DNA of 32,000 nucleotides. It comes from Candidatus Thorarchaeota archaeon (GTDB taxonomy: Archaea; Asgardarchaeota; Heimdallarchaeia; Hodarchaeales; Hodarchaeaceae). The translations under genes were made by a program, and so were the position numbers. Of the stretch, positions 2,790 to 23,335 are shown in pieces. Numbering within the stretch: the stretch's first letter is position 1; the number at the start of each line of letters is the position of its first letter. The notes under the pieces are model-generated. The model was given only the letters and a program-made list of their open reading frames with translations. It did no database searches and was not told the origin of the DNA. The stretch is from assembly GCA_048882505.1 (NCBI GenBank), contig JBHLRO010000014.1, forward strand, positions 66,154 through 98,153, read 5' to 3'.

Positions 2790-2803
2790 CCAAAAGCTTT
2801 TGG
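2790..2803. repeat. Perfect 14-bp palindrome CCAAAAGCTTTTGG just downstream of the small peptide gene
   Basis: Read directly, 6 nt after the stop at 2810 on the minus strand. Could be a terminator or a binding site. Confidence 0.5.
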
Positions 2804-2809
2804 AAAACC

Positions 2810-3004
2810 CTAATCAGCCATGGGAGGATTCGGTCCAGAGCCATTACCGCTGGCTGTGCCAACGGACAGGAAGAGTAAGACCAGCATTATTACCCAGGGT
2901 AATAGTTTCCAGAAAGCAATGCCTACATCGGGTGTTCTGTCTCGAAGTCTAAGTTTCTCTTTCATCATTTTCACCATTTTCAGTCTACTAGTGCGTCGTA
3001 ACAT
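2810..3004 (-). CDS. Small secreted or membrane peptide precursor (GPxPP family, copy 1)
   Basis: Basic N-region, hydrophobic LLPWVIMLVLLFLSV segment, then GTASG-NGSGPNPPMAD-stop. Resembles the ORF at 15731-15856. Start could be any of several ATGs. Confidence 0.6.
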   Translation of the reverse strand: MLRRTSRLKMVKMMKEKLRLRDRTPDVGIAFWKLLPWVIMLVLLFLSVGTASGNGSGPNPPMAD

Positions 3005-3049
3005 ATGCGGAGAGATTCTCTAGGTCTTTTATGCGGAGAAATTCTCTAG
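3004..3049. repeat. Two direct repeats TATGCGGAGA(G/A)ATTCTCTAG, period 26 bp, each with an internal GAGA..TCTC palindrome; candidate operators
   Basis: 3004-3023 and 3030-3049 match at 19/20 nt and lie between divergent genes. Confidence 0.75.
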
Positions 3050-3082
3050 CCGCAAGTACAGCAGGGATATGAAATAACAAAG

Positions 3083-3109
3083 TTTAAATGTTTTGGAGAT
3101 CTCCTCTAG
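3083..3109 (+). promoter_or_regulatory. TATA-like TTTAAA (3083-3088) followed by the palindrome GGAGATCTCC (3095-3104)
   Basis: About 30 nt upstream of ATG 3118, which is therefore the preferred start of P2. Confidence 0.5.
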
Positions 3110-9571: not shown

Positions 9572-10309
9572 TCAACAGCGCCACTGGGAGATCCCGTCAT
9601 GCCGGGTCATGGTCGGACGGAAAGGAAAACCTAATACCACACAGGCCTCTCCGACCGAGTCCTCGAGCCGTTTTAATGCGCCCGTCTTGTCTGAGGGAAG
9701 GGGGTCGAGCGAAGGAGACTCATAGAAAGTGACCAGTTCCTTGACGAGGTGGATGAGCTGCGAGGAACCGATAATCGTGTAGGGATCCACACGACTGACA
9801 AGGCGGTATCGGCGGCGTTCGGCGATTTCAAGGGCGGTCACGACCGCAAAAGGCGTCATTAGGGGGGGTTCGCACGGCGCATAGACTGTCACGCGACGCT
9901 GGAATTCACGACTCGAGATCCGACCTCGTTGCGAAAAGTACGGAAATAACCGATGGCGGAGGTCGTTCGCCCAGAGGTCGGTGTGCTTCCAGGCTGAGAA
10001 CAGCATGTGTGCTTCCAATGAGTACCAGGGCCAGGGAGAGGCGATTCGGAGAGTGGCAAAGGCGGAGTCAATCGTTTCGGCCAGTTTGGCTCGACATAGG
10101 TACGTGACTAGGATCGGCAGTATCTGCTCCATCGAGGACACCAAGTCGTTATTGATGAACAGCGTGTGCGTCCGGCTGTGTGGATTGGAATCCAGACAGA
10201 TCGTCTCTCCCCTCCAGACTTCAAAGAACACCCGCCACTCCAGAGCGAGTCTTTTGAACACAGGCTGGGTTTCAGAGCTGAGCTGTCTCACGAAATAGTG
10301 ATAGGGCAT
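9572..10309 (-). CDS. Hypothetical protein, possibly a degenerate zincin-like fold
   Basis: Long ORF downstream of the longin gene. ATG 10309 is preferred because the longer start overlaps that gene extensively. LVTYLCRAKL sits where an HExxH might be; the fold call is weak. Confidence 0.6.
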   Translation of the reverse strand: MPYHYFVRQLSSETQPVFKRLALEWRVFFEVWRGETICLDSNPHSRTHTLFINNDLVSSMEQILPILVTYLCRAKLAETIDSAFATLRIASPWPWYSLEAHMLFSAWKHTDLWANDLRHRLFPYFSQRGRISSREFQRRVTVYAPCEPPLMTPFAVVTALEIAERRRYRLVSRVDPYTIIGSSQLIHLVKELVTFYESPSLDPLPSDKTGALKRLEDSVGEACVVLGFPFRPTMTRHDGISQWRC

Positions 10310-10707
10310 ATGAGATCCCCGTCCTGCGGGCCTTTTAACTGGTGAAGTTGTTGGGCAATCCACTGGGCAAAAGATTCGAAATGGCGGGGTTGGTTGCTTT
10401 CTACCCAGGGAAATTGTTCCACAAATCGGTCGAGAATCGTGTTGACGCATTCCAGGATACCTGGGGTTAGCGCTTGATCCCGCGAAACGAGGGCCACAAG
10501 ATGCGTCTTTTCCCCCTGACGAAAAACCAGCTTGCTGTTTTGGAGCTGAATCTCGTCAATGGTGTCCTTCAACCATTCCCTGGCAAGCTGGACAAATGCC
10601 ACCAGATATCCCCCGATCAACTGCGGATCCTCCGTCAGTTTGGGTTCACAATGGACATCGATCAGGCATCCCAGCGTTTCGTGAATAATAAAGATGGAAT
10701 GGATCAT
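10288..10707 (-). CDS. Longin-like domain protein
   Basis: MIHSIFII..LGCLI...DPQLIGGYLVAF..LA.E....IDEIQL.NSKLVF...LVALV...ILDRFVEQF...FESF pattern typical of longin / AP-sigma-like folds. GGTGTGA RBS upstream. Confidence 0.7.
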   Translation of the reverse strand: MIHSIFIIHETLGCLIDVHCEPKLTEDPQLIGGYLVAFVQLAREWLKDTIDEIQLQNSKLVFRQGEKTHLVALVSRDQALTPGILECVNTILDRFVEQFPWVESNQPRHFESFAQWIAQQLHQLKGPQDGDLICPITIS

Positions 10708-10849: not shown

Positions 10850-11005
10850 ATGGAGAAACCAACTGCTACGGCAAAGCTAACCAGTAACAACCAGATCACA
10901 CTGCCGAAAGCGATACGAGAACGGCTGGGGGTGAACGTGGGAGACATTGTCCTGTTCTTCATTAAGGACGAGGAAATTGTGATCCGTGCCAAAGTGCAAT
11001 TATGA
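10850..11005 (+). CDS. AbrB/MazE/SpoVT family DNA-binding protein (51 aa)
   Basis: Not in the ORF track. MEKPTATAKLTSNNQITLPKAIRERLGVNVGDIVLFFIKDEEIVIRAKVQL; TATA-like TTTTTAAA at 10811-10818. Confidence 0.9.
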   Translation: MEKPTATAKLTSNNQITLPKAIRERLGVNVGDIVLFFIKDEEIVIRAKVQL

Positions 11006-13761: not shown

Positions 13762-14571
13762 TCAAGCAGTTATCGTTTCCTCGATTAACAATTTTGAGAA
13801 TTGTTCACTTAATAAGCTTTTGTTGTGGTCTAGGAAATCTATTACAGCATTAGCAACATTTAAGATCTTTTCATCAAATGTAATAAATTGTACAGGTCTT
13901 TTACCAGAACAACAAAGCATAATACAACCTATTAGATGAAATCTGTCCTTTTTCCCAATATTTGGTGTGTTTTTCTGGAACAAGAAGAAAAAATTCTTGA
14001 AATCTATTGCCCATAACATGATACTATCTTTCACCCAACGTCGTACAAATTTGTGAGTAATAACATCAAAACTTACTACTGCATGAGAAGGGAGTCTATG
14101 CAAAAGCCTAAAGAACTCTCCACGGAGGCTAGGATTATTATAAACATTGGAGAATCCTTTCCCCCTCCATTCAAAGTAATGATAGATAGAATTAAAATGT
14201 GGATTAGATTTTATTTCATTAGATATCTCCCGAAAAACTTCGTTCTTATTTTCACCTTCCTCAATTCTTTTTTTTGCATTGAGAAGATAACGTCGTATCA
14301 ATAAACTAAATTCTTCAACTTTATGAGACACCATATCTGAGAATTCCCAACTAATTGTATCAAGGACAGCAATGAATTTATTCTTGGATGAATATTCATC
14401 TAGTAGTTTTAGAGATGCTTGCCCTAATCTTTGCTTATGAGAATCCTCACTTAATTCTTCTTCAAAGATTCGGGAAAACCAAATAGAAGTGTCTGGTATT
14501 GATTCTGTTGAACTTGAACCTGGGTGAGGAAAATCTAGAAAAATTATCTCTTCTTTTTTCACAACTCCCAA
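13762..14571 (-). CDS. PIN-domain ribonuclease-like protein with a large helical insertion
   Basis: PIN acidic motifs in the expected order: IPDTSIW, SWEF, GKKDRFHL, FITFDEKILNVA. Confidence 0.7.
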   Translation of the reverse strand: MGVVKKEEIIFLDFPHPGSSSTESIPDTSIWFSRIFEEELSEDSHKQRLGQASLKLLDEYSSKNKFIAVLDTISWEFSDMVSHKVEEFSLLIRRYLLNAKKRIEEGENKNEVFREISNEIKSNPHFNSIYHYFEWRGKGFSNVYNNPSLRGEFFRLLHRLPSHAVVSFDVITHKFVRRWVKDSIMLWAIDFKNFFFLFQKNTPNIGKKDRFHLIGCIMLCCSGKRPVQFITFDEKILNVANAVIDFLDHNKSLLSEQFSKLLIEETITA

Positions 14572-15683: not shown

Positions 15684-15732
15684 AAAAAAATAAAACGGGG
15701 ACAGAGCTGGATCTGCGATCGATCGCCAGCTC
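15684..15732 (-). terminator. Hairpin (GAGCTGG...CCAGCTC with inner GCGATCGATCGC) followed by a T-tract
   Basis: Inverted repeat at 15704-15732 beginning at the peptide stop, then TTTTATTTTTTT on the minus strand. Confidence 0.6.
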
Positions 15733-15856
15733 AGCCTGTGCGGGGGGGAATGGGGCCACCCGCAGGATTGCCCGTGCTGGTCACAACGGCCACCAGCAGG
15801 ATTAGCAACCATACGGTAATCCCCACCAACTTATAACGGTTGATATGGAATTTCAT
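15731..15856 (-). CDS. Small secreted or membrane peptide precursor (GPxPP family, copy 2; 41 aa)
   Basis: Not in the ORF track. MKFHINRYKLVGITVWLLILLVAVVTSTGNPAGGPIPPRTG; strong RBS GAGGTGA 5 nt before the ATG; terminator after the stop. Confidence 0.75.
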   Translation of the reverse strand: MKFHINRYKLVGITVWLLILLVAVVTSTGNPAGGPIPPRTG

Positions 15857-17787: not shown

Positions 17788-18258
17788 TTAGGAGAACTCG
17801 GGATGCCACGTCCAGACCAACCCGGTATTGAGTACCACCAGGACTTGGGCGAGGGTACAGTTCAGACACAGGGCCCCAATGAGGAACAGTTCGATCCAGA
17901 TGAGGTTGACAATCGCCACACACATCATCGCATATTGGAGAATGAGGAACAGATACCATCGCTGCAACCACACTGGATTGATGCCGAGGGCGATCGAGGG
18001 CCGCGACGAGAACCCGCCCACTATCAGGGTCTGGATCAACACACCTGTGATGCCCACCGCCCCTAGCAATGAAATCGGGATCCCAAAAAGCGTCCCATAT
18101 TCCCGAAAGGCCTGAATCAACTCAGGGGTCGTCGTCCCACATCCACAGGCCCCCGCCAAATAGTCGAGGGTCTGTACTGTGAGGATCACAATCGCCAGGA
18201 GGGAACCCGCCGCGATCAACCCGAAACGCCATCTTCCCAAAGCCGGGGACACGCCCAT
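17788..18258 (-). CDS. Vitamin K epoxide reductase (VKOR) family membrane oxidoreductase
   Basis: Four TM helices, loop cysteines (ACGC), YGTLFGIPISLLG and active-site LCLNC; AAGGAG RBS. Confidence 0.85.
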   Translation of the reverse strand: MGVSPALGRWRFGLIAAGSLLAIVILTVQTLDYLAGACGCGTTTPELIQAFREYGTLFGIPISLLGAVGITGVLIQTLIVGGFSSRPSIALGINPVWLQRWYLFLILQYAMMCVAIVNLIWIELFLIGALCLNCTLAQVLVVLNTGLVWTWHPEFS

Positions 18259-21565: not shown

Positions 21566-23335
21566 ATGAGGCTGGAGGCAACCGTATTGCGAGTTGCAAT
21601 AGTAATAGGAGTTAATAAATACATAATCCAAGGTTATCGATCTTTAATTTCCCCAATTTACGATGCAGAAATATTTCACACTTTAATAAGTGCCTCTTCC
21701 TCTTATGAGTCTAAGGATACATTGTTGATCAAAGTTTCAAGCAAAAATTTCCAACGATTTGGTGTGAATTCTGTTAAAAATAGAATAAAAAAGTTTTTAT
21801 CCAGGTATGAGGGAGTAAAGGTAGACGAATTGTTGTTTTATTATAGTGGACACGGTATCCGAATGGACACTGGTGCGAGGGGGGAGGATTTTCATTATGT
21901 GTTTACAGATGGAGAACTTAGTGATATTGCTTTGAATGAAATCCTCAACCCAGTAAAGCGAACCCGAGCAGTGAAATTCATCGATGCCTGTCATTCGGGC
22001 TTACCTATGGAACGTGCTAATCAAATAGTTCTTTCTTCTTGTTCCGATTCTCAACAGACAAGGGAAGGCATAACTATTCTTAGTGATTTCACTTTTGCTT
22101 TGATAAAGGTCATGTTTACTAAAAGAAATTTAGGAACTAGGCTATCCTATAACTCGTTATTCAATCAGGTTGGTGAGTTCTTGAGAACGCGTAGAGAGTA
22201 TATCTCTGACCTACCTACAGCGAATTATAGTACGGCTGCAACAGGGAACTTTATCACGGTTACGCAAACTGTAATTGATGCTGTGCACAATAAGATCTTC
22301 AATATTTACCAAATCCGACCAGACACGATAAGCAGAATAATAAATGCCTTATATGTACGCAATGATCTTCCCAAATTAACACATTTTTTGCTGGAATGCT
22401 ATGAGCATTTTTCGAACTTCTTTTTGAAAATTCTGGAGTTACCTCTGGGTGCACAACCAATCAGTCAGGATAATGGAAGACGATTTAGGGGATTATCGAA
22501 ATCTTTAATCAAGAAAATTCGTCTTTTGGTTACCCGTATAGTAGAGATCTATAGGAGTGATGCTATCTCCTTACAGGAGAATTCCTTTCCAAATCCAAAT
22601 TTACTATACGAAAATATGTTGTTTTGTGCATATTTTTATTATTTCATCCATGATTGGGAGGGGGCAAGGAAAATCTATTCCATATTGATCAACAACAAAC
22701 CAGAATGGGATGATTCAATCATAATCCCCGAATCCCGTTTGCATCTCCAGTATGGGAATACATTGCTAAAAATATCGATGATCAAAGGAAATTATGACAT
22801 GATTGATGAAATCGTCAGTCATCTAGATCGTAGCCGTGATTTGACTAGGAAAAAACGTGAGAAAGTCGCTGCATGGTATAACACTGCTCTCGCTCTCCGG
22901 TTTAATGGAGAGCTTGAGGATGCCATTGAGGCAATTGACGAAGCAGAGAAATTATATCGGCAACTAATGAACAAAGGCGAGGAAGTAGAGACATTTGAAA
23001 ACACTCTAAACGAATCAATTTTGTGTAGACTCTCATTGTTTTGGAGAAACACCAGAGAAGGATCCGCCGTGGTAGAAAAGGATCTGGAAGAGATAAAAAC
23101 CAAAATAAATGATTTTGGATCCTATCCCGACGAAATTGGATGGGCTAACTACTACCTTGCAATATTTCGCTTCATATACTCTAAAGCTAAAGGTATTAGC
23201 CAAAACTATAGAGAAGAGATTTTGGATTTCTTATCCAAGGCCACGCGATCTGGAATGGACGTAGAAGAAGAACTTAGAAAAGAGCAAACCTTTCCTGAAA
23301 TAGCTAAGGATTTAGAAGTAATTCTAAAAGAATAA
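21566..23335 (+). CDS. Caspase-family (peptidase C14) protease with C-terminal TPR-like repeats
   Basis: AIVIGVNKY, L..P..DA, FYYSGHG (catalytic His) and FIDACHSG (catalytic Cys); AWYNTALAL...LEDAIEAIDEAEKL and ANYYLA helical repeats. Confidence 0.9.
   Translation: MRLEATVLRVAIVIGVNKYIIQGYRSLISPIYDAEIFHTLISASSSYESKDTLLIKVSSKNFQRFGVNSVKNRIKKFLSRYEGVKVDELLFYYSGHGIRMDTGARGEDFHYVFTDGELSDIALNEILNPVKRTRAVKFIDACHSGLPMERANQIVLSSCSDSQQTREGITILSDFTFALIKVMFTKRNLGTRLSYNSLFNQVGEFLRTRREYISDLPTANYSTAATGNFITVTQTVIDAVHNKIFNIYQIRPDTISRIINALYVRNDLPKLTHFLLECYEHFSNFFLKILELPLGAQPISQDNGRRFRGLSKSLIKKIRLLVTRIVEIYRSDAISLQENSFPNPNLLYENMLFCAYFYYFIHDWEGARKIYSILINNKPEWDDSIIIPESRLHLQYGNTLLKISMIKGNYDMIDEIVSHLDRSRDLTRKKREKVAAWYNTALALRFNGELEDAIEAIDEAEKLYRQLMNKGEEVETFENTLNESILCRLSLFWRNTREGSAVVEKDLEEIKTKINDFGSYPDEIGWANYYLAIFRFIYSKAKGISQNYREEILDFLSKATRSGMDVEEELRKEQTFPEIAKDLEVILKE

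Follow-up and report, generated by a model that had tools for sequence, protein, structure and literature searches.

What does the short reading frame that stands head-to-head with the regulator gene P2 encode, in a 32,000-nucleotide stretch of DNA from a Candidatus Thorarchaeota archaeon of the order Hodarchaeales? The stretch (hereafter the window; C14:66154-98153, in a genome of 4.3 Mb and 83 contigs) had been read once before from its letters and open reading frames (ORFs), and this initial annotation took the frame for the precursor of an exported peptide that might be a ligand of the neighbouring regulator family or of a receiver pathway. We find that positions 2810-2968 (minus strand) are a real gene of 51-52 codons, that selection acts on the protein, tail included, and that the gene belongs to a previously undescribed family, most detected members of which face a regulator gene of the P2 type. 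Judged by its sequence features, the family would consist of mini pre-peptides specific to the Hodarchaeales, with a basic N-region, a signal-peptide-like core and c-region, and a Gly/Ala/Pro-rich tail of 10-15 residues. Our literature search found no paper on archaeal or Asgard peptide pheromones, nor on this peptide family.

Identification of the small gene

The minus-strand ORF 2810-3004 contains 64 open codons (translation MLRRTSRLKMVKMMKEKLRLRDRTPDVGIAFWKLLPWVIMLVLLFLSVGTASGNGSGPNPPMAD-stop; 3' end ...SVGTASGNGSGPNPPMAD-TAG) and looks as initially described, with a basic N-region, a hydrophobic stretch, small residues and a Gly/Pro tail. We place the gene itself at 2810-2968, with 52 codons from the methionine at 2968 or 51 from that at 2965 and a TAG stop at 2810-2812. 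This is because a conserved Shine-Dalgarno sequence, GGTGA (2971-2975, minus strand), precedes ATG 2968 by 2 nt and ATG 2965 by 5 nt, because the family alignment starts at these methionines (M13/M14 of the 64-codon ORF), and because the public annotation has the gene in its 51-aa form. Of the 17 intergenic regions of orthologous loci that we inspected, most keep a TTTCACC-type sequence where the Shine-Dalgarno stands. A start at 3004 (64 aa) is less likely, as the conserved Shine-Dalgarno sequence and the family alignment both favour 2968/2965.

All parts of the product lie on the minus strand. Residues 1-24 (MMKEKLRLRDRTPDVGIAFWKLLP, 2897-2968) form an N-region of net charge +3, which carries the family motif R-x-R-x3-4-D-x-x-[LI]-x-[LF]-[WL]-K-L-L-P. 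They are followed by a 10-residue hydrophobic core or h-region, WVIMLVLLFL (2867-2896), and by a c-region SVGTA (2852-2866), which the alignment marks as a candidate signal peptidase I site (GTA/S, with small residues at -3 and -1). An alternative candidate site, ASG/N, lies two residues further on, the whole small-residue region reading SVGTA/SG. The C-terminal tail, SGNGSGPNPPMAD (2813-2851), is the predicted exported peptide; it comprises 13 residues and can be written (S)GNGSGPNPPMAD, and a cut after ASG would leave the 11-mer NGSGPNPPMAD. The tail also contains an N-G-S sequon (2851-2837, minus strand), and N-x-S/T triplets (NAT, NVT, NTT, NIT) occur in or near the tail of several relatives; N-glycosylation of an exported part would thus be possible.

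The initial annotation further drew attention to a perfect palindrome behind the stop codon. This 14-nt palindrome (CCAAAAGCTTTTGG, 2790-2803, with T4 runs around it) is real, but the window contains three perfect palindromes of this length where shuffling leads one to expect 2.3, and no comparable palindrome was detected 3' of the stop codons of homologues. Being at chance level and non-conserved, it was rejected as a terminator or element of the system, and it is at most a local terminator.

Family distribution and evidence for coding

Homologues, on whose existence the initial annotation had made its case depend, are present in every sampled congeneric genome and in the protein database. 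A three-sequence profile matched small ORFs in all 21 sampled genomes of the genus, and outside the genus nothing better than an E-value of about 0.07. A 31-sequence profile run against 1.84 billion proteins retrieved 55 cluster representatives at E<=1e-3, all of them 41-81 aa long; those that bear a name are "hypothetical protein" entries of metagenome-assembled genomes of Candidatus Hodarchaeota/Hodarchaeales. The relatives came from profile searches, a word search with the 51-aa sequence in a 5.8-billion-protein collection having matched only itself, and no Pfam or NCBIfam model matches the small proteins. The family profile matches the product of the small gene with an E-value of 6.7e-24, though this product was among the profile's seed sequences. 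The stretch is present in three DNA sediment-metagenome runs of one study, one of which is probably its source, with no RNA run among the matches.

Two types can be distinguished. Type A, to which the small gene product belongs, has the consensus M-x-K-x-[IL]-R-x-R-x3-D-[VA]-E-L-x-L-[WL]-K-L-L-P, followed by a core of 10-12 residues, S-x-S-L-G-x-A and a G/A/P-rich tail that ends in hydrophobic-Asp. These tails vary among species inside one orthologous group (for example VVAGPASTIID, VSAGPAGCIVD and ALGGPNGALID). The hallmark of type B is L-G-[IVLM]-A-D-P followed by a proline run.

Seven family members were found in the present genome. The second member in the window, at 15731-15856 (minus strand), is a type B protein of 41 aa (translation MKFHINRYKLVGITVWLLILLVAVVTSTGNPAGGPIPPRTG-stop; 3' end ...VVTSTGNPAGGPIPPRTG; tail NPAGGPIPPRTG) and an orphan, with no adjacent gene of the P2 family. 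It was initially noted to have the tail motif T[AS][ST]GN..GP.PP in common with the small gene, a likeness that goes beyond chance, as a third copy and further homologues exist. This third copy, also of type B, came to light on contig C7 when the genome was scanned in all six frames for GP.PP close to a stop codon; it is a paralogue of the 15731-15856 copy, and a promoter-like upstream stretch is common to both. A Prion_bPrPp match of ORF 15731-15856 was set aside as a sub-threshold hydrophobic match.

A test for coding-type substitutions, the kind of conservation on which the initial claim also hung, supports coding. Between the C7 and 15731-15856 copies, the tail NPAGGPIPPRT shows seven synonymous and no non-synonymous codon differences, while the 22 codons before it (h- and c-region) show 7 synonymous and 11 non-synonymous ones. 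In this NPAGGPIPPRT subgroup of type B, the tail is thus under the strictest purifying selection, and the core and N-region drift. Among 26 type A genes, the ratio of non-synonymous to synonymous divergence (pN/pS) is 0.47 in the N-region, 0.48 in the core and 0.72 in the c-region plus tail, hence below 1 throughout. The three regions have the same synonymous divergence (about 0.65, near saturation) and a lower non-synonymous one; therefore, the constraint is on the protein and not on the DNA.

Divergent pairing with double-Lrp regulators

P2 (3118-4563, plus strand; 481 aa counted from 3118) is one of a family of genes of about 480 aa, here called c0, and the small gene lies divergent from it at a distance of 149 bp. 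A start of P2 at 3118 is probable because the first 11 residues of the form that begins at 3088 are disordered in the AlphaFold2 (AF2) model and because a TATA box, TTTAAAT (3083-3089, plus strand), precedes ATG 3118 by 28 nt; TTTAAAT/TTATAAAT is conserved in the same position at orthologous loci. The AF2 model, built from a 28-sequence alignment, is confident (pLDDT 87.9, pTM 0.84). Over residues 162-490 it resembles the tandem Lrp/AsnC-like structure of NirDL (Foldseek, 4ch7, E 2.8e-7, with Lrp/AsnC regulators as the next matches; VIA, 4czc, Z 12.6 over 265 residues); these residues comprise two modules of winged helix-turn-helix (wHTH) plus RAM, at 162-335 and 339-490, to which single Lrp/AsnC structures align with Z 6.3-7.4. 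For the N-terminal helical domain of about 155 residues, a wide VIA search over residues 1-160 returned no clear structural match. Pfam gave only sub-threshold HTH matches on P2 and no TPR match. As modelled, P2 is therefore an N-terminal helical domain joined to a NirDL-like tandem Lrp/AsnC unit. Co-folding of P2 with the 51-aa precursor scored 0.84 against 0.65 for one unrelated-partner control, which is below the required margin, and is not used as evidence.

The initial annotation had pointed to linkage with tandem-wHTH genes, and this linkage, to what can now be called double-Lrp genes, proved to be conserved. In two genome-wide searches combined, 44 of the 51 small-ORF hits adjoin a c0 gene, 43 of them divergently and one in tandem, with gaps of 111-282 bp from match to match. 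In the tandem case (L043, G000:C1:458696-460549), alone among the pairs, the small gene follows its c0 gene on the same strand. Seen from the regulators, 44 of the 69 c0 genes were paired by the weak first profile, and the larger profile revealed type B partners upstream of nine further c0 genes previously scored as partnerless. It also detected similar proline-tailed small ORFs beside c0-like genes in the order's second family.

Within the present genome, five of the nine c0 paralogues have a small-gene partner. Three of these partnered paralogues are only 22-24% identical to P2 (BLASTP), and their type B peptides are correspondingly divergent. Identities to P2 of 20-23% were likewise recorded for deep c0 paralogues that are paired with type B peptides. 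The c0 genes that have no partner are mostly inner members of tandem arrays (P1, P3 and P4 in the window) or lie at contig ends. The nearest database relative of the small gene product, P0026 (tail ALAGGPNMPVAD), likewise faces the N-terminus of a c0 protein, and the intervening region contains TTTTATCTAGATAAAA.

In a class-wide sample of 81 genomes, full-length c0 occurs only in two families of this order. At three loci in another family of the class (L078-L080, in G029, G047 and G041; positions ~2210-2260), a 494-aa gene matches c0 in the HTH region only; a tiny conserved 16-codon ORF (MISFELIDQELVEKEL) lies upstream of it, and no proline-tailed gene.

Shared control region

The region between the two genes contains a CTAG-centred palindromic motif, YCGRA-N6-8-T[CG]TCTAGA (also YCGRA-N6-8-TCTCTAGA). 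Of the 17 small-gene/c0 pairs whose intergenic regions we inspected (L023-L042), most have this motif directly upstream of the c0 TATA box. Three copies are present in the window. The first (GCGGAGAGATTCTCTAGG, 3007-3024), with an AGAGA-T-TCTCT palindrome, lies between the coding region of the small gene and its putative TATA-like element (ATAAAAGA, 3025-3032, minus strand); the second (GCGGAGAAATTCTCTAGC, 3033-3050) lies on the other side of that element; and the third (GGAGATCTCCTCTAG, 3095-3109) separates the TATA box of P2 from its start codon. The operator-like repeats thus lie on both sides of the small gene's TATA-like element and behind the TATA box of P2, a layout that would be expected if P2 controls both genes. 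The motif is probably the operator of the double-Lrp regulators.

Features of predicted export and cleavage

The N-region carries a net charge of +2 to +6 in type A and of +1 to +11 in type B. In most members it is followed, after the Pro of K-L-L-P, by a strictly hydrophobic core of 10-12 residues; counted up to the c-region, however, the uncharged stretch amounts to about 20 residues in many members. Several type B members have a Lys or Arg directly after the core, 10-11 residues in, which would leave it too short for a classical membrane span. The c-region has a conserved G-x-A/G column (SLGTA, SLGIA, QGMA, LG[IVLM]A-DP), and the small gene product obeys the -3/-1 small-residue rule with no Pro at +1 (G-T-A/S or A-S-G/N); the corresponding junction in type B is A/D-P. 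A gene for a Sec11-type signal peptidase I is present in the genome, whose own peptide-binding proteins have signal peptides ending in ...V-x-A, the same grammar as that of the small genes. Taken together, these features fit a predicted signal peptide of the Sec type (class I).

Where a cut would fall is ambiguous: the type B column (GMA/STG) would place it at ASG/N and yield an 11-mer, and the type A column (SLGTA) at GTA/S, yielding a 13-mer. We consider the chances that the tail peptide is cleaved and released at all to be roughly balanced.

Other sorting signals were discarded. In an archaeosortase/exosortase signal (PGF-CTERM and similar), basic cluster, helix and motif stand in the reverse order at the C-terminus of a larger protein, and the protein here has only 52 aa in all. 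A class III (pilin/archaellin) signal peptide does not agree with an N-region that ends in W-K-L-L-P and has no [KR]-G/A junction. Lipobox and sortase-type readings were ruled out from the sequence.

Genomic neighbourhood

Type B small genes lead an operon, in which they are followed by genes for proteins of about 107, 146 and 290 aa without a Pfam match (for example L047:6278-7965, L049:8200-9421 and L039:8012-9746). As leads only, the nearest Atlas clusters of the ~146-aa protein are longin/roadblock-like, and those of the ~290-aa protein, which carries an H-box-like HELRTASL, are PAS/HisKA. A longin/roadblock-like c21 homologue is also found in the window at 10288-10707 (minus strand), followed by an overlapping 292-aa frame at 9572-10450 (minus strand); no small peptide or c0 gene stands in front of it, and a search found no small-gene relic there. 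This region (9572-10707) may be a decayed type B operon.

Downstream of P2, the window encodes two small proteins (families c2 and c1) and then a receiver-domain protein. One syntenic type A group of seven loci (L041:1519-7478, L028 and L034-L038) has same-strand genes downstream of the small gene, which encode small proteins of the families c2, c1 and c9 and a 504-aa protein whose long linker is rich in Pro and Ala. Also encoded there is a pair of M16B peptidases, of which one has HFLEH and the other is inactive; both are devoid of a signal peptide. Pfam and NCBIfam recognise none of P2, c1, c2, c3 and c9.

Several other genes of the window deserve mention. A gene at 13762-14571 (minus strand), 1.2 kb downstream of ORF 15731-15856, matches the Enterocin A immunity family of Pfam with 21.4 bits against a cut-off of 22.1, and is not conserved beside other small-gene copies. 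A 51-aa ORF at 10850-11005 (plus strand) has an AbrB/SpoVT-like N-terminus (ITLPKAIRERLGVNVGDIV) and may be an unannotated antitoxin-type gene. A 589-aa caspase-domain (Peptidase_C14) protein is encoded at 21566-23335 (plus strand), and a VKOR-family protein at 17788-18258 (minus strand).

Competing explanations

The explanation that we prefer, at slightly below an even chance, is that the small gene encodes an export-tagged pre-peptide which is cleaved to its tail, and which forms one half of a cassette with P2 as regulator. The small protein would enter the membrane after translation, its N-terminus staying inside; a cut by signal peptidase I behind the conserved G-x-A/G (GTA/S or ASG/N) would then leave a peptide of 11-13 residues, (SG)NGSGPNPPMAD, outside the cell. 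P2 probably controls both promoters via the CTAG-centred palindromic operators in the shared region of ~150 bp, which would make the peptide the regulated output of a two-gene cassette; it may be an input too, in an autoinducer-type loop. Export, cleavage, operator binding and any signalling role are what we infer from the features described above.

Several points weigh against this explanation. First, many members have about 20 uncharged residues between the Lys of KLLP and the c-region, which could form an uncleaved N-in/C-out anchor. Second, in type A, conservation is higher in the N-region than in the tail (mean pairwise identity 0.48 versus 0.36, pN 0.30 versus 0.47), which suggests a cytoplasmic function, unlike a generic Sec tag. 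Third, the small genes of the examined loci have no exporter, importer or membrane receptor as a consistent neighbour, and two of the seven copies in the present genome have no adjacent regulator. Finally, divergent placement is equally expected of a plain regulator/target pair, and the ligands known for the RAM domains of Lrp/AsnC proteins are small molecules such as amino acids, with no peptides among them.

The first two points are also those on which the main rival is built, namely that the product is an uncleaved single-pass membrane micro-protein, N-in/C-out and effectively tail-anchored. Such a protein would act in the membrane or via its N-region, for example by tethering or modulating the double-Lrp regulator or the signalling neighbours (PAS/HisKA-like, longin/roadblock-like, receiver), much as MgrB, SafA and AcrZ modulate their partners, and the regulator would simply control its expression. 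The protein-level conservation of the N-region motif (R-x-R..D-x-E-L..WKLLP) agrees with such a role, as does the position of type B genes at the head of operons of soluble signalling-type proteins; moreover, a 51-aa protein must insert post-translationally, like tail-anchored proteins. However, the strict core is only 10-12 residues long and runs into the conserved small-residue G-x-A, in some members directly into K/R, and the tail of the NPAGGPIPPRT subgroup, as its best conserved part, is hard to explain as a mere stub. A membrane micro-protein is thus possible but, in our estimation, doubtful.

Less probable still is the full form of the initial proposal, a peptide-based circuit for cell-cell signalling in which the exported tail of 10-15 residues is sensed or taken up and switches the tandem Lrp-type regulator. 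The P2-type regulator would here control the peptide gene and the adjacent signalling genes, and the multiple cassettes per genome, with their divergent tails, would be separate channels. To our knowledge, no Lrp-family protein responds to a peptide, and we regard the tail peptide as an unlikely ligand of such a regulator.

The same signal-peptide features would also suit an exported Pro/Gly-rich effector, for example an antimicrobial (archaeocin-like) or surface-modifying peptide, with the double-Lrp protein only as transcriptional regulator. Diversification of the tails between species within one orthologous group would fit an effector, as would the weak EntA_Immun match near the second copy, but this match is below the Pfam cut-off and its gene is absent beside the other copies. 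In addition, immunity or export genes are not consistently linked, and the tails are short, mostly uncharged and without the cationic character of known proline-rich antimicrobial peptides. We therefore consider an effector improbable.

More improbable again is a precursor resembling those of ribosomally synthesised and post-translationally modified peptides, whose N-region would serve as a leader for dedicated enzymes such as the M16 pair. The leader-like N-region is indeed more conserved than the tail in type A, and the M16B-type pair lies with several unknown proteins on the same strand downstream in seven loci; but these loci form one syntenic orthologous group and have the weight of a single observation, neither the window nor the type B loci contain the M16 genes, and the M16 proteins have no signal peptides, nor was a modifying enzyme family recognised in the loci. 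Finally, the small size and the position inside a long intergenic region rich in regulatory motifs might have suggested that the ORF is open by chance or is non-coding DNA from the promoter of the regulator gene. This is refuted by the coding-type substitutions, the open frames in all homologues, the conserved ribosome-binding site and the 55 clusters in the database that agree in length and architecture.

Comparison with known systems

We know of no peptide-based communication in Archaea. In the Hodarchaeales, an Asgard group usually placed nearest to eukaryotes, a mini-peptide gene with an export tag is paired with a transcription factor of the ligand type (Lrp/RAM), in an arrangement that is conserved, multiplied and spread across the lineage, and on these sequence features the cassette is a credible candidate for peptide signalling in archaea. 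A true signal would imply a new receptor fold for peptide sensing and secreted-peptide signalling in Asgard archaea. A membrane micro-protein would still be a conserved partner, so far unannotated, of a regulator family that has expanded. Either way, the small gene explains the long upstream region kept by these regulators.

On the regulator side, the closest comparison is with Lrp/AsnC regulators and with NirDL/AhbAB. P2 has wHTH plus RAM twice, as in the NirDL fusion, and, like Lrp/AsnC regulators, it stands head-to-head with a small target gene with palindromic sites at the promoters. Unlike all of these, it has an extra N-terminal helical domain of ~155 residues. The known ligands of Lrp/AsnC proteins are amino acids, and that of NirDL-type enzymes is siroheme.

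Among small proteins, MgrB, SafA, AcrZ and KdpF are similar in size (40-60 aa), in their single hydrophobic segment and in being regulated genes beside signalling genes. Their functional contacts lie in the membrane or in a periplasmic stub, and, unlike the proteins described here, they cross the membrane with helices of full length and do not show a conserved c-region of the signal-peptidase kind. Plant CLE/IDA peptides resemble the predicted product in that the mature form is a Pro-rich C-terminal piece of 12-13 residues of a signal-peptide-bearing precursor. Many CLE peptides even contain SGPNP, as does the tail of the small gene product, a resemblance that comes with no sign of homology. 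Other family members do not have this motif; the precursors of CLE peptides are longer, and receptor kinases sense the peptides.

In bacteria, RRNPP/Phr and arbitrium systems encode short exported pro-peptides beside their cognate regulators, and it is with these that the initial annotation compared the locus. The initial idea stood up to the checks for homologues, linkage and coding-type conservation; as P2 is Lrp/AsnC-like, the cassette would be an analogue of RRNPP/arbitrium systems and not a member. In layout, its nearest counterparts are Rgg/SHP and the Phr/AimP precursors. We rejected membership itself because P2, next to which the small gene does lie, has no TPR match in Pfam and is modelled as a tandem Lrp/AsnC protein.

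As in the Rgg/SHP and ComR/ComS systems of streptococci, a tiny peptide gene is divergent from a gene for a cytoplasmic DNA-binding regulator, and paralogous cassettes have multiplied; as in Rgg/SHP, the functional part would be expected at the C-terminus of the precursor. Unlike in Rgg/SHP, the host is an archaeon, the regulator is tandem Lrp/AsnC-like without a TPR peptide-binding domain, and the precursor has a predicted Sec-type N-terminus, whereas SHP peptides are leaderless, hydrophobic, exported by PptAB and cut by Eep.

The precursors of Phr (of Rap-Phr), NprX, PapR and AimP differ from ours in being encoded downstream of their regulators on the same strand, instead of divergently, and in acting on TPR receptors. 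Their mature peptides are 5-10-mers, compared with a predicted 10-15 residues, Gly/Pro-rich, here, and the N-region is here a conserved motif and not a charge cluster alone. Nevertheless, the overall design is the one predicted for the small gene: a precursor of 40-60 aa, encoded beside a regulator, that consists of a signal peptide and a short C-terminal peptide. Moreover, the genome has oligopeptide-binding proteins (at least eight SBP_bac_5 genes, none linked to the small genes) that could re-import such peptides, as in Phr-type systems.

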